A stretch of DNA of 39,511 nucleotides. Source: a bacterium. GTDB taxonomy: Bacteria > Babelota > Babeliae > Babelales > JABDEC01. Location of the stretch: NCBI GenBank assembly GCA_947481115.1, contig CANKEI010000002.1, positions 1 to 39,511 of the forward strand. Reading direction: 5' to 3'. Of the stretch, positions 2,635-36,869 are shown in pieces (the first letter of the stretch is position 1; each line of letters opens with the position of its first letter). Position numbers and translations under genes: made by a program. The notes under the pieces are model-generated. The model saw only the letters and a list, made by a program, of their open reading frames with translations, was not told the origin of the DNA and made no database searches.

Positions 2635-3615
2635 ATGAGATTAAATAATCTATCTCCCGCTCGTCCCGAGCGCAGTCGAGGGATGTTGTGGGCACAGCTT
2701 TTACTGGCGCTATTATTACTCAGTTCAGATCAAGCAACTAAATTCTGGGCAGTTAAATATTTAGTTAATATTATGCCAGTATTTAATTTTTTAAATTTGA
2801 TCAAGCTCGATTTAGAGCTAGCTTTTAATCAGGGTGTTAGTTGGGGTTTATTTAGCGCGCATAATTTAATGGCACGATTAAGTTTAATAGCGGCAATTTC
2901 AGTTATTTTAATTTATTTGATTTTTTATACTAAGCAGAGATTGCGGGCTGGCAAAACTATTTTAGCTGAAAGCTTAATTATTGCTGGCGCAATTTCTAAT
3001 TTAATTGATCGTTTATATTATGGTGCGGTAATCGATTTCATACACGTTAGTTTTAAATTTAATAATTTAAATTGGGACTTTCCCATTTTTAATTTAGCTG
3101 ATGTGGGAATTTTTATCGGTGTTTGTTGTATGTTATTTAGGGAGTATTATCCTGAAAAAAATAATCTTTTTTGTAAAAATTTAGCTACTTTAGGTGATTT
3201 GGGTAATTGGCAAGCGCCGGGAACTTGGGGAACATTAGCAGCTGTACCAGTGGTGTTTTTAGCTAGGCAATATTGTAATAATTTAATTTATTTAGGTTTA
3301 GTTATTACGGTAATAATTAGTGCGTATTTAATTATTTATAAATCTAGTAATTATTTCCCAGTTTCTGATGATCAAACAATTATCATCGATGAATTTGCAG
3401 GATTCTGGTGTTGTTTTATTATTACCTGCAAATTTAGTTTACTAGTCTTAGTTTTAAATTTTTTAATTTTTAGATTTTTTGATATTTCTAAAATTTGGCC
3501 CGTCAATTTAGCTGAAAAATTACCAGGAGCACTAGGCGTTTTAGCAGATGATCTAGTCGCAGGCTTATTAACAAATCTTAGTTGGGTGATTTGTGTTAAA
3601 TATATTTTCTGCTAA
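2635..3615 (+). CDS. lspA: fusion protein: lipoprotein signal peptidase II (LspA) N-terminal half plus phosphatidylglycerophosphatase A (PgpA) C-terminal half
   Basis: The N-terminal half has LspA motifs (DQATKFWA, FNQGVSWGLF, ISNLIDRLYYGAVIDFI, FNLADVGIFIG). The C-terminal half has PgpA motifs (PGTWGTLAAVPV, IIIDEFAGFW, FRFFDISKIWP, GVLADDLVAGL). The true start may be ATG 2683 (MLWAQLLL..), which lies inside the repeat. Confidence 0.85.
   Translation: MRLNNLSPARPERSRGMLWAQLLLALLLLSSDQATKFWAVKYLVNIMPVFNFLNLIKLDLELAFNQGVSWGLFSAHNLMARLSLIAAISVILIYLIFYTKQRLRAGKTILAESLIIAGAISNLIDRLYYGAVIDFIHVSFKFNNLNWDFPIFNLADVGIFIGVCCMLFREYYPEKNNLFCKNLATLGDLGNWQAPGTWGTLAAVPVVFLARQYCNNLIYLGLVITVIISAYLIIYKSSNYFPVSDDQTIIIDEFAGFWCCFIITCKFSLLVLVLNFLIFRFFDISKIWPVNLAEKLPGALGVLADDLVAGLLTNLSWVICVKYIFC
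2657..2691 (+). repeat. short variant of the GC-rich palindromic repeat family
   Basis: CCGCTCGTCCCGAGCGCAGTCGAGGGATGTTGTGG. It equals the long copy minus an internal 16-nt segment and a shorter G run. It overlaps the 5' end of the lspA-pgpA ORF. Confidence 0.75.
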
Positions 3616-13984: not shown

Positions 13985-14500
13985 ATGAACCTAAAACCAA
14001 AATTGACACCTAGACTTTCAAATAGCTTATTTAATCAGTTTTTACAAAAATCCAGCTGGGGTTTTACTCTAATTGAACTAATGATCGTAGTGGCGATTAT
14101 CGCTTTTTTATCGATTATTGCAGTACCTAATATCATGAATTTTTTAGCAAAAGCCAAACGCACCGAAGTTTATGTAAATCTCGGGGCCATTTGGGCTGCT
14201 GAAAAATATTATTATAGCGAGCATGGTCGTTATTCTGATGCCTTAACTGGACCTAATGGGATTGGTTGGCGCACCGAAGGTGAGCCGTTATATACTTATG
14301 GTTTTGCGGGTTCTGAAGGCGTAAATTATATGATCGGTAAATTAAAAGCTAGCGGGGCAGATTTAGGTAAATATTCCAGCGCTGGATCAGACGGGTTTAC
14401 TGTAGTCGCCATCGGTGATATTGATGGGGATGGTAAATTAGATGTGATTACCATGAATGATCGGAAGCAGCTTAAAATTGTCGAGGATGATTGTGCTTAA
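13985..14500 (+). CDS. prepilin-type N-terminal cleavage/methylation protein (type IV pilin or GspG-like pseudopilin)
   Basis: A 26-aa leader ends in G, followed by FTLIELMIVVAIIAFL. The mature part is about 145 aa with a C-terminal DxDGDGKLD acidic loop. Confidence 0.85.
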   Translation: MNLKPKLTPRLSNSLFNQFLQKSSWGFTLIELMIVVAIIAFLSIIAVPNIMNFLAKAKRTEVYVNLGAIWAAEKYYYSEHGRYSDALTGPNGIGWRTEGEPLYTYGFAGSEGVNYMIGKLKASGADLGKYSSAGSDGFTVVAIGDIDGDGKLDVITMNDRKQLKIVEDDCA

Positions 14501-14507
14501 ATCACTT

Positions 14508-14565
14508 GCTCGCAACATCCCCCCCTCGACTGACGCTCGGGGTGAGCGGGGTTCGGGACGAGCGG
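14508..14565 (-). repeat. long copy of the GC-rich palindromic repeat family
   Basis: GCTCGCAACATCCCCCCCTCGACTGACGCTCGGGGTGAGCGGGGTTCGGGACGAGCGG. Its reverse complement is identical over 55 nt to 28944-28998. It sits between convergent genes. Confidence 0.9.
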
Positions 14566-14657: not shown

Positions 14658-14903
14658 TTAACAGTTCCAGCAGATTTGGCGGCAATAGCCACGTACGCCT
14701 TTATGCTCATCAGTGATGGCACCAGTCGAGGCTACCTTGCATTTCCAACCACTGCCATAATCGCCATATGCCGCTACTAGATCATTGCAATTGTCGACAG
14801 CTGTCCAACATGGCACACCTTCAATTTCGCTATCATGATGATGATAATGGGCTGATAAGTTAGCAGCTGATAATAATAACAATAAAACTAATAATTTTTT
14901 CAT
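14658..14903 (-). CDS. small secreted Cys-rich protein (6 Cys) with a His-rich segment after the signal peptide
   Basis: GGAG SD plus ATG 14903. MKKLLVLLLLLSAANLSA, then HYHHHDSEIEG and a 6-Cys mature part. The 5' module is shared with the 15576 gene. Confidence 0.75.
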   Translation of the reverse strand: MKKLLVLLLLLSAANLSAHYHHHDSEIEGVPCWTAVDNCNDLVAAYGDYGSGWKCKVASTGAITDEHKGVRGYCRQICWNC

Positions 14904-14916
14904 GATAATCTCCAAA

Positions 14917-15274
14917 TTAATCTTGTGTTAATACGCAAATGCCAGAATTTTCAGAATATGACTCGCAATGTAAATCATTTAAATAACCACTACATGGATT
15001 TAATAAATTTGTTTTACAACTATTAAATAACCCCGGAATATTTTTAGGGTTTTGATAAAATTGGCTATTATAACTGGATGGTATACAAATCTTTTCACCA
15101 TTGCCATTTCCTAATGTTTGACAGAAAAACAATGCCCCGGCAACACTGCCATCACAATATGTTGGATCTTCAGTTTTACATAAAGTAAAGCCGATATCAG
15201 CACCTAAATTTGTGTGTGTGTGTGTGTGTGTGTGTGATTACAACCATTATAGTTAAAGCCAATAGTTTTTTCAT
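14917..15274 (-). CDS. small secreted Cys-rich protein (8 Cys), frame-split at a (CA)13 tract (candidate phase-variable, currently OFF)
   Basis: ATG 15274 gives MKKLLALTIMVVI(TH)4KFRC*. Another frame is open from the tract to 14917 (97 aa, 8 Cys). Confidence 0.65.
15211..15236. repeat. perfect (TG)13 / (CA)13 dinucleotide microsatellite
   Basis: Counted directly: 26 nt of uninterrupted TG on the plus strand. Confidence 0.97.
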
Positions 15275-15331
15275 AATACTCCCAGAAAACATATGACAAA
15301 TTATTTTTTAGTATTAATTTACAAAACTCAA

Positions 15332-15576
15332 TCAAGTACAAACACCTAAAGGGTTGTCGTTAGCCAAGAAGCCACAGGGTATACATTTTTTTCCTCCGTA
15401 TTGTTCTTCACAATTAGTATCTGGCATCGGGTTAGGTGGTCCTAGCAAAGGTGTCCCATAAGGAGGGGAACAAAGCACAACCGTATCTGAAGAGGCAGGA
15501 CAGTATGCTTTTACGTTGTGTGTGTGTGTGTGTGTGTGATTATAGCCATTATAGTTAAAGCTAATAATTTTTTCAT
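15332..15576 (-). CDS. small secreted Cys-rich protein (6 Cys), frame-split at a (CA)11 tract (candidate phase-variable, currently OFF)
   Basis: GGAG SD plus ATG 15576 gives MKKLLALTIMAIITHTHTHTT*. The frame carrying the Cys-rich part (NVKAYCPASSD..GVCT) has no leader of its own and only a TTG at 15622. Confidence 0.65.
15517..15538. repeat. perfect (TG)11 / (CA)11 dinucleotide microsatellite
   Basis: Counted directly: 22 nt of uninterrupted TG on the plus strand. Confidence 0.97.
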
Positions 15577-15683
15577 GATAATCTCCAAATTTTGCATAAA
15601 ATATTAATAAACGGGGCCCCAAATTTATAAAACTTAATTTATAAAAAGCAGCCCCGTAGATTAATTTATGCTAGTTAATTGTC

Positions 15684-16106
15684 TTACTTTATAACGTATT
15701 GGCAAGTGCCTGCCATGCCCCATAGGGTCATAGCTTCATTTTTATCAGGACTGCAAGTAAGATTTGATGGTTTTTCTTCGCCAGCACCACATGCACCTCT
15801 TTCACCCACGATACACGGCGAACCATTACCATAAGCTTTATTTGAGTGCTTTCTAGTCCATCTTTGCTTTTTAACTTTTTGCACCTCTTGCCATTGAGCT
15901 TGAGTTACACAGTGGCCAGGTTTGCCATCACCCTTAATATCGCCATAACTAAGTAACGGTACACAAACTCTATTAACTGTAGAGCTAATTAAACCACAGC
16001 TATTTTGGGCACCCTGGGTACATTTATTTAATTTTGGAAAGGGTGAAGTGGCCTGTAAACCGGCTGCTGAAAGCAGCGCAATTGATAAAAATAATAACTT
16101 TTTCAT
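15684..16106 (-). CDS. small secreted Cys-rich protein (8 Cys)
   Basis: GGAGG SD plus ATG 16106. Signal peptide MKKLLFLSIALLSAAGLQA. The mature part is about 120 aa with 8 Cys and a basic central segment. Confidence 0.75.
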   Translation of the reverse strand: MKKLLFLSIALLSAAGLQATSPFPKLNKCTQGAQNSCGLISSTVNRVCVPLLSYGDIKGDGKPGHCVTQAQWQEVQKVKKQRWTRKHSNKAYGNGSPCIVGERGACGAGEEKPSNLTCSPDKNEAMTLWGMAGTCQYVIK

Positions 16107-16415
16107 AAAAGTAACCTCCGTATAATTAATGGGGCGGGGTTCCAAATATTGGTACCCCCATTGTTACTACACTCCCCGTAACATAAATGGTAGCAAAACC
16201 GGTATTTAGAAGGCAATAGTTTTGTTTAAAAAGTTACAGAAAATTAAATTTACAGGTTTAAAAAATGGTTTCAGGGGTCACTTTGACCCATTTAATATGC
16301 TTTTTTTTCTGAATAGTTTTATATTCGGTGACTTCTTGCATAATATTTTTATAAATATCTAAAGGTACAATCAGGTGCGTTACTTCGTTAATAGATTTGT
16401 TTTGTTGTTACAATA

Positions 16416-17168
16416 TTAAAGCATAATTCTGAGTATTAAATCTTGCCAGTAAATATAAGTTATAGCGCCGAGGGCTAAGTAGGGGCCAAAAGGTATTTTA
16501 CCAGAAAATTGGTTATTGCCAGCGAGAATTTGCATGATACCTACTAAAGAACCTAAGAGCGAGCCTAGCAATAAACTTAACCAGCAGCCTATTGGGCCGG
16601 TAAATGAGCCGATAAATGCCAATAAAAATAGATCACCGGTGCCTAAGCCCTGTTTGTTAGTAAAGTAAGCAAACATAAAATTAGTCAGCCAAAGTAAACT
16701 ATAGCCTAAAATAGCGCCCAGGCCGCTATTAATAACTGTGACGGGTAGATAATTAAAATAACTAAAAATTAAACCCAGGGGGATTAAATAGATTGAGACT
16801 AAATTAGAAATTAAAAAAGTCTCAAGATCCGTACGAATCGTGATAATTAGTGCTGAGCAGAAAATAAAATAAGCTAGCCAATATGTGACTGAAAAGTAAT
16901 AAAAGATCGGCAAGATTGTAACTATTGTGAGTAGTTCGATAATGGGATATAAAATCGAGATTGAATGTTGGCATGAACGACAACGGCCCCAAAGTAAGCA
17001 CCAGGACAATACTGGAATTAAGTCACGAGCTTTAAGATTAGTTAGACAGTGGGGGCAAGTGGAGCGTGATTTACTTAATGTGATATTATCGTGCACTAAG
17101 CGATAAGCTAGTTGATTTAAAAAGGATCCCCAGCAGAGTAGCATTATGATTAAGACGATAAGTGTCAT
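16416..17168 (-). CDS. pilD: prepilin peptidase (A24 family, PilD/GspO-like)
   Basis: N-terminal CPHC..CRSC zinc-binding pairs, multiple TM segments, and a GLGTGDLFLLAFIG aspartyl-protease motif. Confidence 0.88.
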   Translation of the reverse strand: MTLIVLIIMLLCWGSFLNQLAYRLVHDNITLSKSRSTCPHCLTNLKARDLIPVLSWCLLWGRCRSCQHSISILYPIIELLTIVTILPIFYYFSVTYWLAYFIFCSALIITIRTDLETFLISNLVSIYLIPLGLIFSYFNYLPVTVINSGLGAILGYSLLWLTNFMFAYFTNKQGLGTGDLFLLAFIGSFTGPIGCWLSLLLGSLLGSLVGIMQILAGNNQFSGKIPFGPYLALGAITYIYWQDLILRIML

Positions 17169-17181
17169 GATAATCTCTTGT

Positions 17182-17216
17182 CCTCCACATCCCTCGACAA
17201 GCTTCGGGACGAGCGG
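17182..17216 (-). repeat. short variant of the GC-rich palindromic repeat family
   Basis: CCTCCACATCCCTCGACAAGCTTCGGGACGAGCGG. It pairs in inverted orientation with 17281-17329 across a 64-bp AT-rich spacer. Confidence 0.75.
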
Positions 17217-17280
17217 TAATTAGTTTGCTTTTTTATTATAATAAAAATGTTTTACTAAAGCAGAAACAGACAGGTCATCT

Positions 17281-17329
17281 GCCGCTCGTCCCGAGTGTAG
17301 CCTTATGGCGAAGTCGAGGGATGTGGCGG
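17281..17329 (+). repeat. variant copy of the GC-rich palindromic repeat family
   Basis: GCCGCTCGTCCCGAGTGTAGCCTTATGGCGAAGTCGAGGGATGTGGCGG. Both conserved termini are present. Confidence 0.75.
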
Positions 17330-17387
17330 ATATAAGTGTTTGTGCTAAAAGATATTACAAAATGTGTTATTGTTGAATTCGCGCTAA

Positions 17388-28327: not shown

Positions 28328-29566
28328 GTGTTTAAATATTTAATTCGTTTAGCCAGTATTTGTTTTTGGCTAGTTATAATTTTAGGTAGTTTGTATACCG
28401 CTAATTATTTAACGCAAAATATTTCTGAACCTAAAGCGATTAATATTTTCACCTGGGTTGACATGATCAATCGCGAGAGTGTTAGTGAATTTGAGCAGCA
28501 AACTGGTATCAAAGTTAATTTAAGTTATTTCAGTAACGCCGAAGAATTATTAACTAAGTTACGTTTAACTAATAGTCAAGATTACGATTTAATTGTCACC
28601 AATGATTATGCTATCGAGTCTTTAATTAAACATGATCTAGTGCAAAAAATTGATCATACTAAATTAAATTTTTGGTCACAAATTGATCCAAATTTATTAA
28701 ATTTTTATTATGATCCGAAAAACTTATACTCGATCCCGTTCTATTGGGATATTTATGGGCTGGGTTATGTTACAGAAAATTTAGGCCAAAAGCATCACCA
28801 ACAAAATTTACAGAATTTAATTTCGGATAATCACACACCAGCTTTAAAAGTTAAATTAAATACTGGAAATATACTAGATACCCCAGAGCTTAGTTGGGGC
28901 TTAGTATTTAATTCAGCACATAATTCACAAAATAATCTTTCTACCGCTCGTCCCGAACCCCGCTCACCCCGAGCGTCAGTCGAGGGGGGGATGTTGCGGG
29001 TACCTAATTCACAAATTGCTATGTTAGACAATGGCTTAGAGGCGGTACTGTGTGCCGGACAATATTTATTTGGTTCATCTGATAGTTTGCAACCAGCGCA
29101 ATTGCCGAAAATTCGTACATTATTAATTCAACAGAAAAATTTTATCACAGCCTATACTGACGAAAAAGCAGGCTTTTTACTAGCTGCTGGTGACGTACAG
29201 TTAGCAGTCACGCAAAGTGCTTTTATTCATCGTGTGATCAAACGACAGCCGGAGATTAAATTTGGGATCCCTAAAGAAGGGGGCTTTATGGTAGTTGATG
29301 CGTTTGTGATTTCCAAATATAGTACTAAACTTGACTGGGTCTATAAATTTTTAAATTTTATTTATCAGCCTAAATTTATTGATCAAACTGTGACTCAATT
29401 TGCTTATCTACCAGTTTTGACTAGCAGTTTACAACAAGCAGATTTAAATTATCTGGGTGGCTTTGATAAGTTGTTTAAGCAAGATTTTAAAAAGTTACAA
29501 TTTTTTAAGCGCAATTTACCATTACAAGAAGTAAATAAAATTTGGGTTGATGTTAAAGCTGCATAA
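28328..29566 (+). CDS. potD: polyamine-type extracellular solute-binding protein carrying a repeat-derived insertion
   Basis: Operon position after potABC, an N-terminal anchor, and a PotD/PotF-like N-terminal half (INIFTWVDMI..). The insert ..ARPEPRSPRASVEGGMLR.. is encoded by the repeat. Confidence 0.75.
   Translation: MFKYLIRLASICFWLVIILGSLYTANYLTQNISEPKAINIFTWVDMINRESVSEFEQQTGIKVNLSYFSNAEELLTKLRLTNSQDYDLIVTNDYAIESLIKHDLVQKIDHTKLNFWSQIDPNLLNFYYDPKNLYSIPFYWDIYGLGYVTENLGQKHHQQNLQNLISDNHTPALKVKLNTGNILDTPELSWGLVFNSAHNSQNNLSTARPEPRSPRASVEGGMLRVPNSQIAMLDNGLEAVLCAGQYLFGSSDSLQPAQLPKIRTLLIQQKNFITAYTDEKAGFLLAAGDVQLAVTQSAFIHRVIKRQPEIKFGIPKEGGFMVVDAFVISKYSTKLDWVYKFLNFIYQPKFIDQTVTQFAYLPVLTSSLQQADLNYLGGFDKLFKQDFKKLQFFKRNLPLQEVNKIWVDVKAA
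28944..28998 (+). repeat. long copy of the GC-rich palindromic repeat family, in-frame inside potD
   Basis: CCGCTCGTCCCGAACCCCGCTCACCCCGAGCGTCAGTCGAGGGGGGGATGTTGCG. Identical over 55 nt to the reverse complement of 14508-14565. Confidence 0.9.
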
Positions 29567-31789: not shown

Positions 31790-32644
31790 TTATTTTAAGC
31801 TTGATGCTGTGCAAATTTTAGTATTTATCCCAGGGCCGTTACTACAAATTGCACCAGTAACACAATCACTGGAACTGTTATAACAACTGTTGCCTATTTT
31901 AATTTTGCATTGATTAGTGCTTGAATCACAACTTGTGCCAACTGCACAATTATTGTTTGGTGGAGTAGTATTGCAAGTACCATTCAATGGGATAGGGCAG
32001 GTGCTAGTATCACATTGCAACAACTCTGGAGTTTGGCAACAATCTTGATTATATAAACAAATAGTACTAGCTGTTCTGCAAGTGGTTACTGGTGGCAATA
32101 GAGCTGCAATAGTTGCTTGGTCAGTCTGATAGTCTATGGTACCTGGAGTAGCTGAATTAAAATGAATAATCACCCAATCTAAAGCAGTAGCGTCCATGAA
32201 CTTAGGTGGATAATTTACAATTGTATCTGGGTTGGCTCCACAAGCTAAAAATAGTTGGACTGCAGTTTGTGTGGGAGTTTTATTATAATAGATTCCATTA
32301 TTCGCTGCGATTATTAATGGTGGAAATCCAGATGTATTATTGGTATTCAGTAGGTCCAGCAAACAGTTATTATTTAACCAGTTTTGCTGATTAGTAGCGG
32401 GAGGTGCTACAGGTGTTGTTATGCCATAACCTTCATATAAATTGCGATTAATGTTGCTATTTATCCCGGTAAATACATTATAGAGTGTTATCAGATCGCA
32501 ATTAGCTGGAATCACAGTAGTAGAGCAAGTAGTCGATAAACTAGCTGGTGCTAGAGTACTAATTAATATAAGTATACTAATCAGTACTCTAGTCAAAAAC
32601 ATAGCATCTGTTTTTAGCAAAACCTTATATTTTAGCTTTGCCAT
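31790..32644 (-). CDS. secreted protein with one ankyrin-like repeat and a Cys-rich C-terminal module
   Basis: Hydrophobic leader (FLTRVLISILILISTLAPA), ANK-like PLIIAANNG..LFLACGANPD, and a C-terminal 90 aa with about 17 Cys in CxxGxxC-like spacing. An alternative start is at 32602. Confidence 0.6.
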   Translation of the reverse strand: MAKLKYKVLLKTDAMFLTRVLISILILISTLAPASLSTTCSTTVIPANCDLITLYNVFTGINSNINRNLYEGYGITTPVAPPATNQQNWLNNNCLLDLLNTNNTSGFPPLIIAANNGIYYNKTPTQTAVQLFLACGANPDTIVNYPPKFMDATALDWVIIHFNSATPGTIDYQTDQATIAALLPPVTTCRTASTICLYNQDCCQTPELLQCDTSTCPIPLNGTCNTTPPNNNCAVGTSCDSSTNQCKIKIGNSCYNSSSDCVTGAICSNGPGINTKICTASSLK

Positions 32645-35313
32645 AAAGCCTCCAAGTGGCTAATTAAGGCAACATAATCTTTAGGTGTAATTTCTGGCCA
32701 ATTAAAACCTCTATTAGATTTAAGATAAATAAAAGCCAGCGCTGATAATTTAACTGGCGAAGCTGATGTTTCAGCGCGTACTTGATTAATGATGTCCGCT
32801 AAAATATTTTTGTCCCCAGAATCTTTATAGGCGGCAACTAATTTAATATAGCCCGGACCTTTACCAGCTACTTCACTAGTATTCATTCCTAAAGGCCACT
32901 TGGCTGGACCAGGCACGAATGGTGGCTTAGCACTTGTGCCACCGCCTGAGCCACCACCAGCGCCAGAACTTGCATCCGCCGCAGGAGGACTACCTTTAGA
33001 TTCAGCAAAGCCGCCACCTGAGCCACCGCCGCCAGCGCCAGATCCACCAGTACTTGCTCCAAAAATTTTGGCAAATTGTTGATTAGCTTGCTCAGATAGG
33101 TCAGCAATTTCAGAGATTACATTTTGAGATATAACATCGTCTTTAGTGAAACCTAGTGTCAACGATTTAGCTACTATGGCTTCAAGTTGGCTTAATAAAA
33201 ATTCTGCCCTGCTTTTATCTCTTGACATGACTCCACTATGCAATTGTGCCCTAAGTTCTTTGGCATCTTGTAGTAATTTTCTTAATGCTGTCCAGGCTGG
33301 AATTTCACCGCTGCCAGCGCTAGCTTTAAGTCCTTCAATGCGTGCGCTTAAAAGAGCTAGTCTATCATTTATTTTAGTTATAAAACGCGTTTGAACTTGT
33401 GTTATCATAGAATTTAATTGACTAGCAATTGCGGCTAGATTATTTGGATCAATTGCCGACGGAGATGATAGCCCCGTGCTCCAATAAGCCTTAGTAGCTT
33501 CACTGATTTGGTCCACCGATCTTTTAGCATTATCTAAATCTGTAGTTATCTGCTGCCTGACGGCAGCTTGGACTTGCCCGATAGATGCTAGGAGGTTATT
33601 CAGTTTGTGTATGTCAGCAGTTGTTGGTTTAGCTTCATATGTTCCAATATATTTCTCGATATCTAAAATAAACGTATCCAAATCTTTCATACCTATCGTA
33701 ATTGTAATTTTTTCCAGCGCTGTATCTTGAATCTGTTTATATAAGTCTTTGATATTTTGCGTTACACCATTCAAGCTAGTTTCTATTCTGGTGAAATAGT
33801 CAATATCCACCGGAGTCCATGTATATTCAGCTCTTATTTTTGTAAAGAACTGCTGCGTTTTTTCTATTAATCTTGCTAGCAAGAAAGATGCACTTTGGTC
33901 CCTTAGGCTGATTAAATTTATTTCAAGCAAGCTTATGAAATCAGCGCTACTTATCGTGTCAGCAGTAAGTTTGTCGCTGAGAGCTGTGATCTTGGACCTT
34001 ACTTCATTAAGCATACCATTAAAATTTCCATATAAACTATGCAATTCTATTCGCACATCATCAAAATTTCCTACAGATCCACCACCAGCAGATCCACCTG
34101 ATAAAATCCCAATGATTTTTTCAAGTGCAGGTATATCAGCGGTTGGTGCTTCGCTTCTACTTAGAGCTGATTTCACCAATTCTAAACTTTCATTAGCAAT
34201 GTCGAGTGCAGTTTTACCTGTGGCATCTTTTATACTAACATTAGCGTTCTTTCGCAGGAGCAGATCTATTTTATTTTCAATATTTGATTGCCCTTTAAAA
34301 GCTGCCAAAACAGCTAGCATTAGTGGGGTGTGACCATTTGTATCTTGTGCATTAATATCAGCACCATAGTCTATTAATAGTTTGAGATACTGGGTAGCAT
34401 TTAAGCTTGGTGAAATAATGGTATACATAATGGGAGTTTGTTGTTCATGGTTATTTGGAGGTGTGAAATTAACCCAAGCTGCGCGTTGTGCAACGGTGGC
34501 TCTTTTTAAAAAAGCCACTAAATTATTGAAAATTTCCAGACTTTCAGCAGCTTCTCTGTCTTTATTTTCCTGGAGTCTGTGCTGTTCAGCTTCGGCATGT
34601 TCTGCTGTTTCATGTTTTGCGTCTCGATGAGCGTCAGCGTCCACCTCAGTTAAAGTGCCAGATAAGTTAAGTAAAATAGCATGTATTAAAACAGTTTGGC
34701 CATTTAAATCACTAGCATTTAGTATCTCATAAGCGGTGGCATTTGTAGCTGCATCGTGACCGAAAGGGGGGATATTGCTAATTAATAATTTTACCATGTC
34801 GATGCAATTAGCATCGATCGCTAGCATTAGAGCTGTTTTATTTCCTAACTTAATAGCAACACTGTTAAGCTTGGCGCCATAACTTAACGCTTCTCTAACA
34901 TTGGCTATGCCGATAGCATTACATACGCTGGCGAATTTTAGCAATTTTTCAGAAGATTGAGATTCCGGCGTGGCAAATCCATTATCTAAATCATAGGCTA
35001 GCTTTAAAGCATCATCTGTTAAAATTCTTCTTGCTTCGCCAACTTCTTTCCATTTTTTTGCTTGAATAGATTGCTCATCGATTGTAAGCCTGTTGGAAGA
35101 ATCGGGATGCCATTTTCTTAGAAGCTTTTTGATTGCTACATCAATTTCTCGATCAGAAGCGCTTGTAACTAGATCAATAGCTGCATAAATATTAGCAGCC
35201 GGTTTGAACATAGCTAGCAAGTTGACAGAGCCTAGTAATAATGGTGTTAAGATTAAGATATATGTTATGGCAGACAGTGTCTTAGTCGCCAATTTGTTAT
35301 TTAATACTTTCAT
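32632..35313 (-). CDS. signal-anchor plus J-domain (HPD) plus ankyrin-repeat plus long helical region plus Gly-rich protein
   Basis: MKVLNNKLATKTLSAITYILILTPLLL.. then a J domain (IYAAIDL..LRKWHPDSS..ILTDDALKLAYD). ANK repeats follow (GNKTALMLAIDANCIDMVKLLI; NGHTPLMLAV; TGKTALDIA), then poly-Gly/Ser linkers. Confidence 0.75.
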   Translation of the reverse strand: MKVLNNKLATKTLSAITYILILTPLLLGSVNLLAMFKPAANIYAAIDLVTSASDREIDVAIKKLLRKWHPDSSNRLTIDEQSIQAKKWKEVGEARRILTDDALKLAYDLDNGFATPESQSSEKLLKFASVCNAIGIANVREALSYGAKLNSVAIKLGNKTALMLAIDANCIDMVKLLISNIPPFGHDAATNATAYEILNASDLNGQTVLIHAILLNLSGTLTEVDADAHRDAKHETAEHAEAEQHRLQENKDREAAESLEIFNNLVAFLKRATVAQRAAWVNFTPPNNHEQQTPIMYTIISPSLNATQYLKLLIDYGADINAQDTNGHTPLMLAVLAAFKGQSNIENKIDLLLRKNANVSIKDATGKTALDIANESLELVKSALSRSEAPTADIPALEKIIGILSGGSAGGGSVGNFDDVRIELHSLYGNFNGMLNEVRSKITALSDKLTADTISSADFISLLEINLISLRDQSASFLLARLIEKTQQFFTKIRAEYTWTPVDIDYFTRIETSLNGVTQNIKDLYKQIQDTALEKITITIGMKDLDTFILDIEKYIGTYEAKPTTADIHKLNNLLASIGQVQAAVRQQITTDLDNAKRSVDQISEATKAYWSTGLSSPSAIDPNNLAAIASQLNSMITQVQTRFITKINDRLALLSARIEGLKASAGSGEIPAWTALRKLLQDAKELRAQLHSGVMSRDKSRAEFLLSQLEAIVAKSLTLGFTKDDVISQNVISEIADLSEQANQQFAKIFGASTGGSGAGGGGSGGGFAESKGSPPAADASSGAGGGSGGGTSAKPPFVPGPAKWPLGMNTSEVAGKGPGYIKLVAAYKDSGDKNILADIINQVRAETSASPVKLSALAFIYLKSNRGFNWPEITPKDYVALISHLEALWQS

Positions 35314-35373
35314 AAAAACCCCCAAAAATTATAAGTTTAAAATTATTTTACTAATCTATATCTGAATCTTTAT

Positions 35374-36180
35374 TTACCTGTCACCAGCTCCTGTACTACC
35401 ACTACTAGCTTCTAATCTAGCAATTTTAGCTGTTGCTAATCTTGACAATTCTCTGAGCTCACTAAAAATTTTTGCATCACTGGTAGTACTAGTACTACCA
35501 GAAATAGCACTAGCGTTTCTAACTATATCATTGAGCTCAGTCAGTAATATTTTAGCTTCAGCTAGATGACCTAGCCTAGTCGCTCTGTCGATCTCGCTAG
35601 CTGTTGTTTTTGCTAGTTGTGACAAGATACTCATTCCGTTGGCGCTAGTAGCCATAGCTTGTTTTGCCATTTTTAATAATCTCTCAATTTCACTTTTACT
35701 AACGCTTGTTTTAACACTACTAGCAGAACTTATTTCACTGCCAGCACCACCACTACTAGCGCCAGCACCATAAGAACTTGTTCCACCGCCAGCACCACTA
35801 GCACCAGCAGATCTTGTTCCAGTACCAACACCAGCACCAATACCAATACCAGCAGCTTCCAATTGAGTTTCTTTAGTTTGATTTTTAAGAATATTCCAGG
35901 CTTCGGCGATTTCTAACCATTTATCTCGCTGGATAGCTTGTTCTTCAGCAGTCAGCCGTAAAAATCTATCGGGATGCCATTTTCGTGCAAGCTGTATGAA
36001 AGCTGCTCTAATTTGAGAGTCCGTAGCATCTTCAGTTAGACCTAGTGCGGCATAGTGATCTCTTGCGGGGGTAAACATAGCTAGTACATTAATAGAGTTT
36101 AGTAGCAATGGCGTTAAGACCAAAATATATGCGATAGTAGACAGTGTCTTAGTCGCCAATTTGTTCTTTAATATTTTCAT
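35374..36180 (-). CDS. signal-anchor plus J-domain (HPD) plus Gly-rich linker plus helical region protein, paralog of 32632-35313
   Basis: MKILKNKLATKTLSTIAYILVLTPLLL.. then DHYAALGLTEDATDSQIRAAFIQLARKWHPDRF. The N-terminal 45 aa are near-identical to the neighbouring gene. Confidence 0.75.
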   Translation of the reverse strand: MKILKNKLATKTLSTIAYILVLTPLLLNSINVLAMFTPARDHYAALGLTEDATDSQIRAAFIQLARKWHPDRFLRLTAEEQAIQRDKWLEIAEAWNILKNQTKETQLEAAGIGIGAGVGTGTRSAGASGAGGGTSSYGAGASSGGAGSEISSASSVKTSVSKSEIERLLKMAKQAMATSANGMSILSQLAKTTASEIDRATRLGHLAEAKILLTELNDIVRNASAISGSTSTTSDAKIFSELRELSRLATAKIARLEASSGSTGAGDR

Positions 36181-36184
36181 GAAA

Positions 36185-36193
36185 CCCCCCCCC
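36185..36193. repeat. C9 (G9 on the coding strand) homopolymer, with 4 nt between it and the ATG of the J-domain gene
   Basis: Minus strand reads TTATTTTGGGGGGGGGTTTCATG. The paralog has G5 at the equivalent position (35319-35323). Confidence 0.9.
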
Positions 36194-36676
36194 AAAATAA
36201 TTTAAGCTGTAGCTCTATTTCTACTAAATTATAAGTTTAAAATATTATTTTTTATAACTATTTAACTATATTAATTCATAATTACAGGTTAATGGATTGG
36301 TTAAGTGAAAAGCAAGAGTTTAGTTTTTTTGGAATAAATATTTAAAACAGGGTTTAATTTTATATATAAACCGTTGCTTTTTTGTGGGTGAGTAGTCTAC
36401 TCTGAGGAAGAGGGTAGAATATTTGTGGTGGTTATGTTTATAAAGTCGCTCTACTTCACTAAAGTTTCGTAGGGCTGCGGTGAGCCGCGGGAGGTTATGA
36501 TGACGCAATTTGTAATAATTTTATGCATGCTATTATCTGCTGGATTTACAGTAAGTCTATGCAATTTAGGGCTTAAATAGTAGTTCCAGGCAGGTTTATT
36601 AAACTATGTATTGGTTTAATGCTATGCTTACAGGCAGTCTATATTAATAGACTTCTTCCGTAATTCACAGTTTCTA

Positions 36677-36735
36677 CTCGCTACATCCCCCCCCTCGACT
36701 GACGCTCGGGGTGAGCGGGGTTCGGGACGAGCGGG
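36677..36735 (-). repeat. long copy of the GC-rich palindromic repeat family
   Basis: CTCGCTACATCCCCCCCCTCGACTGACGCTCGGGGTGAGCGGGGTTCGGGACGAGCGGG. Differs from the 14508 copy by one extra C in the homopolymer run and one substitution. Confidence 0.9.
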
Positions 36736-36869
36736 AAAAAATTTTATTTCAAGATAGTTACGGAAGAGCTCTATTATGCAAATCCAGAAGCTTAAAAAAT
36801 CTTAATCTCGCTTAATTTTATTAGTAATTTTTCTAGCAGCTACTTTTTAATACTTGGCTTTATGAGTGC

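Follow-up and report, generated by a model that had tools for sequence, protein, structure and literature searches.

The oipA gene of Helicobacter pylori carries CT repeats in its signal-peptide region, upstream of a conserved cleavage motif, and in oipA, as also in sabA and babA, the unit number of this 5' dinucleotide repeat varies by strain and sets the reading frame to On or Off (PMC10564699). In Neisseria, each opa gene carries CTCTT repeats in its leader-peptide region, several genes are switched independently by these repeats, and conserved leaders precede hypervariable mature regions (PMC3745409). Here we describe a locus that looks like these on/off surface-variation loci of human pathogens, carried by an uncultured freshwater Candidatus Babeliales (Dependentiae) bacterium. 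It lies in a stretch of 39,511 nucleotides (nt) of contig CANKEI010000002.1, referred to throughout as the window, and consists of an array of four minus-strand open reading frames (ORFs) in the order g4-g3-g2-g1, flanked by a prepilin peptidase gene and a convergent pilin gene. Two of the four, g2 and g3, are each interrupted by a perfect CA-dinucleotide tract in the region encoding the signal peptide, and we regard it as probable that this is a contingency locus in which slippage of the repeats switches the two genes.

The likeness to the H. pylori genes rests on the position and effect of the dinucleotide repeat. Unlike in H. pylori, the repeat is CA rather than CT, the proteins are small, soluble-looking and Cys-rich with no similarity to the porin-like Hop proteins, the switching is a prediction, and the bacterium is a member of the Dependentiae with relatives that parasitise protists. 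The opa genes recombine with each other; they encode homologous beta-barrels and number about 11, whereas here the mature domains are unrelated and two genes are switchable. The repeat-switched contingency locus is a mechanism known already, and what is less usual is a module common to unrelated Cys-rich proteins in a protist-associated candidate phylum. No report linking Dependentiae with phase variation, contingency loci, cassette exchange or Cys-rich scaffolds was found in the literature, and the locus would extend contingency loci, which have been studied mostly in animal pathogens, to a bacterium that probably infects protists.

Published Dependentiae genomes are described as those of host-dependent protist parasites, with an abundance of ankyrin repeats and of secreted orphan proteins (PMC4776705, PMC6561590); in Chromulinavorax destructans, 44% of the coding sequences have signal peptides, with an enrichment in orphan genes (PMC6561590). 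The present organism probably parasitises protists as well, and among the products encoded in the window is a protein with a J domain and ankyrin repeats. Like the Dependentiae orphans (PMC6561590), the array proteins are lineage-restricted, bear a signal peptide and occur in a host-dependent bacterium; unlike them, they combine apparent repeat-based switching and cassette exchange with Cys-rich scaffolds. One member of the g1 protein cluster, HLB94078.1, is a hypothetical protein of the Candidatus Babeliales metagenome-assembled genome (MAG) GCA_035287785.1. The window itself is 100% identical to contigs of several lake metagenome assemblies, one of these runs coming from the Rimov reservoir, and a run of a related lineage is from Lake Zurich (PMC10244341). 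The genome context examined spans about 40 kb, and what is said of the distribution of the module within the genome applies to that span.

The gene array and its CA tracts

The array, its two tracts and the flanking genes are arranged in the window as follows (aa, amino acids; a slash marks a cleavage site).

13985..14500, plus strand: pilin/pseudopilin gene, convergent with the array; Pfam N_methyl; 26-aa leader, G/FTLIE motif
14658..14903, minus strand: g1, intact ORF of 81 aa; ATG at 14903; leader MKKLLVLLLLLSAANLSA; mature part of 63 aa with 6 Cys
14917..15274, minus strand: g2, out of frame as sequenced; ATG at 15274; mature part of 97 aa with 8 Cys
15211..15236, minus strand: (CA)13 tract at the end of the g2 hydrophobic leader, before the likely cleavage site NLGA/DIGF
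15332..15576, minus strand: g3, out of frame as sequenced; ATG at 15576; mature part of 61 aa with 6 Cys
15517..15538, minus strand: (CA)11 tract in the g3 leader
15684..16106, minus strand: g4, intact ORF of 140 aa; ATG at 16106; leader MKKLLFLSIALLSAAGLQA; mature part of 121 aa with 8 Cys
16416..17168, minus strand: pilD, the prepilin peptidase gene, directly upstream of the array; Pfam A24_N_bact and Peptidase_A24

A check of the ORFs reproduced the coordinates, ATG codons, MKKLL leaders and Cys counts (6, 8, 6 and 8 for g1 to g4) given in a first-pass annotation of this DNA, as well as the 13 nt that separate the g2 stop from the g1 ATG. That annotation had also placed the array between a prepilin gene and its peptidase gene; the Pfam matches bear out both identities, with the correction that the pilin gene is on the opposite strand and convergent. 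All four proteins begin with MKKLL followed by a hydrophobic stretch, and the number of Cys is even in each. The mature part of g1 starts with an invariant HYHHHD, and that of g4 has a Lys-rich middle.

The perfect (CA)n tracts are the sole break in g2 and g3, and they leave the leader and the Cys-rich part of each gene in different frames. Both tracts begin at codon 13, and there are no other dinucleotide tracts in the 39.5-kb window. In-silico frame restoration gives a full-length g2 at n = 11, 14 or 17 (117, 119 or 121 aa) and a full-length g3 at n = 7, 10 or 13 (78, 80 or 82 aa). Each gene is one CA unit from in-frame, and other lengths yield peptides of about 19–50 aa. Past the tracts, the frames remain open for 97 codons in g2 and 61 codons in g3, for which the chance by base composition is 0.0013 and 0.016, respectively. 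As sequenced, g2 and g3 are both predicted to be off in the window strain.

The leaders of g1–g4 are built like Sec signals, with an n-region and an h-region, and in g2 and g3 the tract is situated at the end of the hydrophobic core. In all alleles, the tract or its Thr-His (TH) remnant is followed by a short segment that ends in A or G (NLGA, NLKA, NLQA, NVKA, GLKA or NLNG) and therefore fits the −3/−1 rule of signal peptidase I, with likely cleavage at NLGA/D and NVKA/Y. Because the tract precedes this site, in-frame changes in its length would only extend the part of the leader that is removed and would be harmless, and His-Thr is probably absent from the mature protein. Moreover, a (CA)n tract can be read only as alternating His and Thr, whatever the frame, and for both reasons a selected metal-binding motif was rejected. 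The (His-Thr)n feature pointed out in the first-pass annotation is present in g2 and g3 and missing from g4, and the metal-binding role proposed for it has no support.

Related lineages, shared modules and selection

Arrays related to that of the window were found in the following lineages, with nucleotide identity to the window given in brackets.

Lineage A, the window with L001, L002, L020 and L021 (100%): pilD-g4-g3-g2-g1-pilin; tracts of 11 and 13 units, g3 and g2 off
Lineage A2, L022 with L027 and L028 taken as the same strain (~96–97%): in-frame g3 at (CA)7; in-frame g2 allele of 131 aa at (CA)8
Lineage A3, L019 (~95%): g4-g2-g1, without g3
Lineage B, L005 and L006 (~85%): pilD-g4-g2-g3-g1, a GIY-YIG gene, then pilin
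Lineage C, L008–L015 (~82–84%): pilD-g2-g3-g1-pilin, without g4

The contig L027 comes from the same sequencing project as L022 and was assumed to represent the same strain, the 96–97% identity being measured over the shared backbone. In lineage B all four genes are intact, THT or THTH stands in place of the tracts, and g2 precedes g3, the reverse of their order in the window; in lineage C the genes are intact and only TH is found at the tract position. The tract at the g2 position amounts to about 3 units in both of these lineages. The g3 orthologues of B and C are intact at 80–84 aa, the g2 orthologue of L005 is intact at 116 aa, and g2 alleles of other strains are 128–138 aa long. The array genes are real, the intact orthologues in related species confirming the predicted frames, and the expansion of the tracts is specific to lineage A. 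The A2 strain encodes a g1 protein identical to that of the window (DNA 99.6% identical) together with a g2 allele that is about 45% identical to the window g2.

Tract length differs between conspecific strains. The g3 tract has 11 units (off) in one strain and 7 (on) in another, and the tract at the g2 position has 13 (off), 8 (on) or 11 (off) units across strains. The suggestion of switchable expression made in the first-pass annotation is supported by this polymorphism and by the occurrence of in-frame and out-of-frame states between strains of one species.

The 5' ends of three of the four genes are related at the nucleotide level. The 30-mer ATTTGGAGATTATCATGAAAAAATTATTAG occurs in exactly two copies, at the starts of g1 and g3, with 0 matches in 100 shuffles, which places the similarity of these leaders above background. 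Two longer modules can be delimited.

14883..14918, minus strand: g1 5' module spanning the ribosome-binding site, start codon ATG and initial codons; 36 nt, 97% identical to g3 15556–15591
15517..15583, minus strand: g3 leader-plus-tract module, 91% identical over 67 nt to g2 15215–15281

The near-identity of 5' modules claimed in the first-pass annotation therefore holds for the pairs g1/g3 and g2/g3, where it is far above chance, and fails for g4, whose leader has only the amino acids MKKLL in common with the others and no similarity at the nucleotide level. In lineage A the g2 leader is of the g3 type (MKKLLALTIM), whereas in lineages B and C it reads MxKLFLTLTL, from which it follows that g2 probably received its leader and tract as a copy from g3. 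As far as the common ATGAAAAAATTATTAG, the junction of g2 with g1 in lineage A matches that of g2 with g3 in lineage B, and this match appears to be the scar expected of recombination at the module. The g2 mature cassette is swapped between strains, exactly at the leader boundary, and gene order and content vary among the lineages. Between A and B, dS of g2 (0.37–0.44) is below that of pilD (1.13), so that the history of the g2 alleles disagrees with that of the genome.

Several further observations were made at these junctions and in the surrounding locus. A 1266-nt Logan contig (P0014) encodes a 166-aa g3-g1 fusion in which the g3 stop is lost and the frame reads through the 13-nt spacer. 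In lineage B (L005 11417–11999), a GIY-YIG nuclease gene and a 24-nt tandem repeat are found between g1 and the pilin gene, and in one lineage C strain (L015 1946–2633) a ParE-type toxin-antitoxin pair is found between pilD and the array; the array locus tolerates insertions. The Logan short-read contigs L003, L004, L027 and L028, from at least 4 runs, end in the g3 leader (window ~15551–15562). Since contigs break at the repeated leader module, the array locus is probably under-represented in MAGs.

Pairwise Nei-Gojobori estimates of the ratio of non-synonymous to synonymous substitution rates (dN/dS) differ among the array genes. For g1 the ratio is 0.05–0.1, on a par with pilD and the pilin gene, and g1, with orthologues that are 88–89% identical in lineages B and C, is under strong purifying selection. 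In the comparison of lineages C1 and C2, the 15 codons of the g2 leader are without differences and the mature part has a dN of 0.58 with saturated dS, while in the same pair dS is 0.02 for g1 and 0.05 for pilD; the g2 alleles of the window and L022 show the same pattern. In g3, 12 non-synonymous and 2 synonymous changes separate two close lineage C strains (Fisher p = 0.003 against neighbouring genes), and in g4 there are about 16 non-synonymous and 8 synonymous changes between A and A3. Judged by these comparisons, g2, g3 and g4 evolve fast. The first-pass description of a conserved leader with a hypervariable mature part accordingly fits g2 well and, in the strain comparisons, g3 and g4 more weakly, and does not fit g1.

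The same annotation had called the array a four-gene family while conceding that the mature parts could not be aligned by eye. They are not aligned by computation either: BLASTP of the mature parts against one another gave nothing significant, and the best hhalign profile pair, g2/g4, reached a probability of 16%. A four-Cys module common to the mature parts was considered and dropped, being without support in profile-profile comparison. The mature domains thus have no detectable homology, and g1–g4 are not a single gene family; what they share is a 5' module that recombines, rather than detectable ancestry.

Outside the array, relatives are few. Word-indexed searches of 5.8 billion proteins with g4, g1 and a g2 profile returned matches confined to this narrow Babeliales clade, the g4 homologues comprising only P0002 (62% identical, lineage B) and two strain variants. 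When 1.84 billion representatives were searched exhaustively with HMMER, two more matches appeared. One of them, P0020, is a true distant g2 homologue with an ordinary signal peptide in an unrelated gene context on a lake-metagenome contig, and it is the only homologue outside the lineages that carry the pilD-pilin array; the other, P0019, was rejected as a spurious match to a repetitive protein. No homologue of the array proteins in named free-living bacteria was found in these protein searches, and the alternative named in the first-pass annotation, ordinary conserved periplasmic proteins with free-living orthologues, did not hold up. No credible match to g1–g4 was found in Pfam, NCBIfam or the PDB sequences, the Hop, Opa and TcpF/CofJ families included. 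A genome collection scanned for relatives of a PilD alignment yielded nothing beyond a Thermoguttaceae locus of no relevance, and a metagenome scan with a g1 alignment gave only one contig that was already known.

Proposed mechanism and alternative explanations

We propose that g1–g4 are exported by Sec and become disulfide-bonded in the periplasm, and that slipped-strand mispairing by plus or minus one CA unit toggles g2 and g3 independently and reversibly. When g2 is off, its premature stop may also lower the expression of g1, which starts 13 nt past the g2 stop. The shared 5' modules would serve as recombination sites for the copying of leaders and the exchange of cassettes. In this scheme g1 would be a conserved core component, and g2, g3 and g4 would be exposed, fast-evolving proteins that most likely act as ligands or adhesins in contact with the host cell and may exit via the neighbouring pilus or type II secretion apparatus.

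Several points weigh against such a switching locus. Export, cleavage, disulfide bonding and location are all read from the sequence alone, and a function in host contact is suggested by lifestyle, evolutionary rate and analogy. The differences in tract length are between strains, and the window assemblies by themselves agree as well with a recent inactivation, which may be reversible, as with active phase variation. All assemblies with the window's own alleles share the out-of-frame lengths of 11 and 13 units, some of these lake assemblies possibly being from the same samples or re-assemblies and hence not all independent. The out-of-frame g3 ORF that requires n = 11 was found on 7 contigs, and exact look-up in about 15 billion proteins returned no in-frame version of the window g2 or g3 alleles. 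Finally, the g2 copy of L019 has a GTG start, an out-of-frame (CA)11 and a second frameshift, and looks decayed, so that genes of the array are subject to decay.

The uniform out-of-frame lengths, the lack of in-frame window alleles on record and the decayed L019 copy are what would be expected if g2 and g3 were young pseudogenes, in which a mutable repeat has slipped out of frame and loss is under way with no adaptive switching, and the absence of g3 from L019 and of g4 from lineage C would agree with this. We nevertheless consider gene decay unlikely, as neither g2 nor g3 has a further lesion, each being a single unit from in-frame, and perfect tracts of 7–13 units persist in three sub-lineages, with both genes in frame in L022. 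Slippage at a dinucleotide tract of 11–13 units is, in addition, inherently reversible. That the frameshifts are errors of sequencing or assembly is very improbable: repeats are error-prone and the Logan contigs do break at the leader repeat, but identical lengths were obtained in several assemblies with different assemblers and samples, the tracts (22–26 nt) are shorter than the reads, and two independent tracts are both out of frame. A role as antimicrobial or toxin-like peptides (defensins, knottins or bacteriocins) directed at competitors or the host, which the first-pass annotation had raised by analogy, seems improbable as well. The proteins are small, Cys-rich, leader-bearing and variable, and the top match of a Foldseek search of the g2 model against the PDB is a spider double-knot toxin; that match has E = 3.4, however, nothing was found at E < 1, and the AlphaFold models are of low confidence (pLDDT 61.7 for g2 and 55 for g1). 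The leaders are of Sec type, and among the neighbouring genes there is no exporter of the ABC type or other kind, no immunity gene, no modification enzyme and no double-glycine leader. Toxin, defensin and metal-binding roles are without support here.

The position of the array raises another explanation, which would add to the switching of g2 and g3 rather than replace it. The genes tcpF and cofJ adjoin prepilin peptidase genes in their operons, and the proteins TcpF and CofJ use Sec for export and type IVb pili for release. The array likewise encodes Sec-type proteins beside prepilin peptidase and pilin genes, so that g1–g4 could be cargo or partners of a type IV pilus or of type II secretion. 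The likeness is positional only; unlike TcpF and CofJ, the array proteins have no sequence similarity to pilus-secreted proteins or other known families, no pilus assembly operon is at hand, and the association is known from gene position alone. In favour of a pilus link, three species-level lineages retain the array between pilD and the pilin gene, the leader of the pilin is long at 26 aa and its lone C-terminal Cys is conserved, and TM6/Dependentiae genomes are reported to have genes for type II secretion and possibly for a type IV pilus, gspD replacing pilQ (PMC4776705, PMC6561590). Against it, the prepilin motif (G followed by FxxxE and a hydrophobic helix) is absent from g1–g4 and present only in the gene at 13985–14500, there are no pilus assembly genes in the window, P0020 lies in an unrelated context, and the locus accepts toxin-antitoxin, GIY-YIG and other insertions. 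We regard pilus or type II cargo as an unlikely addition.

Contingency switching of g2 and g3 may be part of something larger. A leader with its (CA)n tract could act as a portable switch module that is grafted onto unrelated exported proteins and swaps mature cassettes between strains and species, the Cys-rich products being ligands that set the protist host range and are delivered by the pilus or type II secretion. We hold this extension to be rather doubtful. If true, it would be the first phase- and antigen-variation system to be described in the Dependentiae and in an arms race between a bacterium and protists. Dependentiae are widespread protist parasites, mostly uncultured, and the locus marks candidate genes for host contact.

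Non-coding elements and other features of the window

Two structured non-coding elements are associated with the array.

15594..15671, minus strand: hairpin with a U-rich stretch between g4 and g3; −31.6 kcal/mol, z-score −4.5, 0 of 200 shuffles as stable
16107..16262, minus strand: conserved non-coding element of ~150 nt upstream of the first array gene; equivalent to L005 9846–10000 and L008 9133–9287

The hairpin between g4 and g3 is likely a terminator or attenuator, and its strength and position after g4 suggest that g4 and g3-g2-g1 are partly separate transcription units. Most columns of the upstream element are identical in lineages A, B and C, even though synonymous sites in the adjacent genes are almost saturated, and it includes the hairpin GGGGGTaCCAatatTTGGaACCCC; it is probably a promoter with a structured 5' leader. 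Rfam gave no match for this element or elsewhere in the locus, and a promoter scan performed no better than on shuffled sequence. In L014 and L011, a 75-nt insertion is found between the hairpin and the ribosome-binding site.

The genes neighbouring the array are pilD, rbfA, an S21 gene, the pilin gene, ksgA and mreB. The pilin product matches NCBIfam PilA and GspG, both below their cut-offs. Besides its long 26-aa prepilin leader, it has a C-terminal region with weak FG-GAP-like character and only one Cys, the penultimate residue (EDDCA). Lineages A, B and C all conserve this Cys, and its being unpaired could be of significance next to a group of exported Cys-rich proteins. Intergenic regions at 14511–14565, 17181–17330, 28944–28998 and ~36700–36760 contain copies of a GC-rich palindromic element (~55–60 nt; gctcgtcccgaa...cgagggggg). 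It resembles repetitive extragenic palindromic (REP) sequences or miniature inverted-repeat transposable elements (MITEs), copies of it flank the pilD-array block, and one assembly contig ends in it.

Elsewhere in the window, a tract of nine G residues (36185–36193, minus strand) precedes by 4 nt the ATG of a gene for a J-domain protein (35374–36195). A tract of this kind is unusual at 37% GC and may be a G-rich ribosome-binding site or a second mutable tract. The adjacent gene at 32632–35325, which encodes a J domain with ankyrin repeats, has an N-terminus closely similar to that of this J-domain protein. An ORF at 2635–3615 on the plus strand combines the domains of signal peptidase II (LspA) and phosphatidylglycerophosphatase A (PgpA) in one polypeptide.

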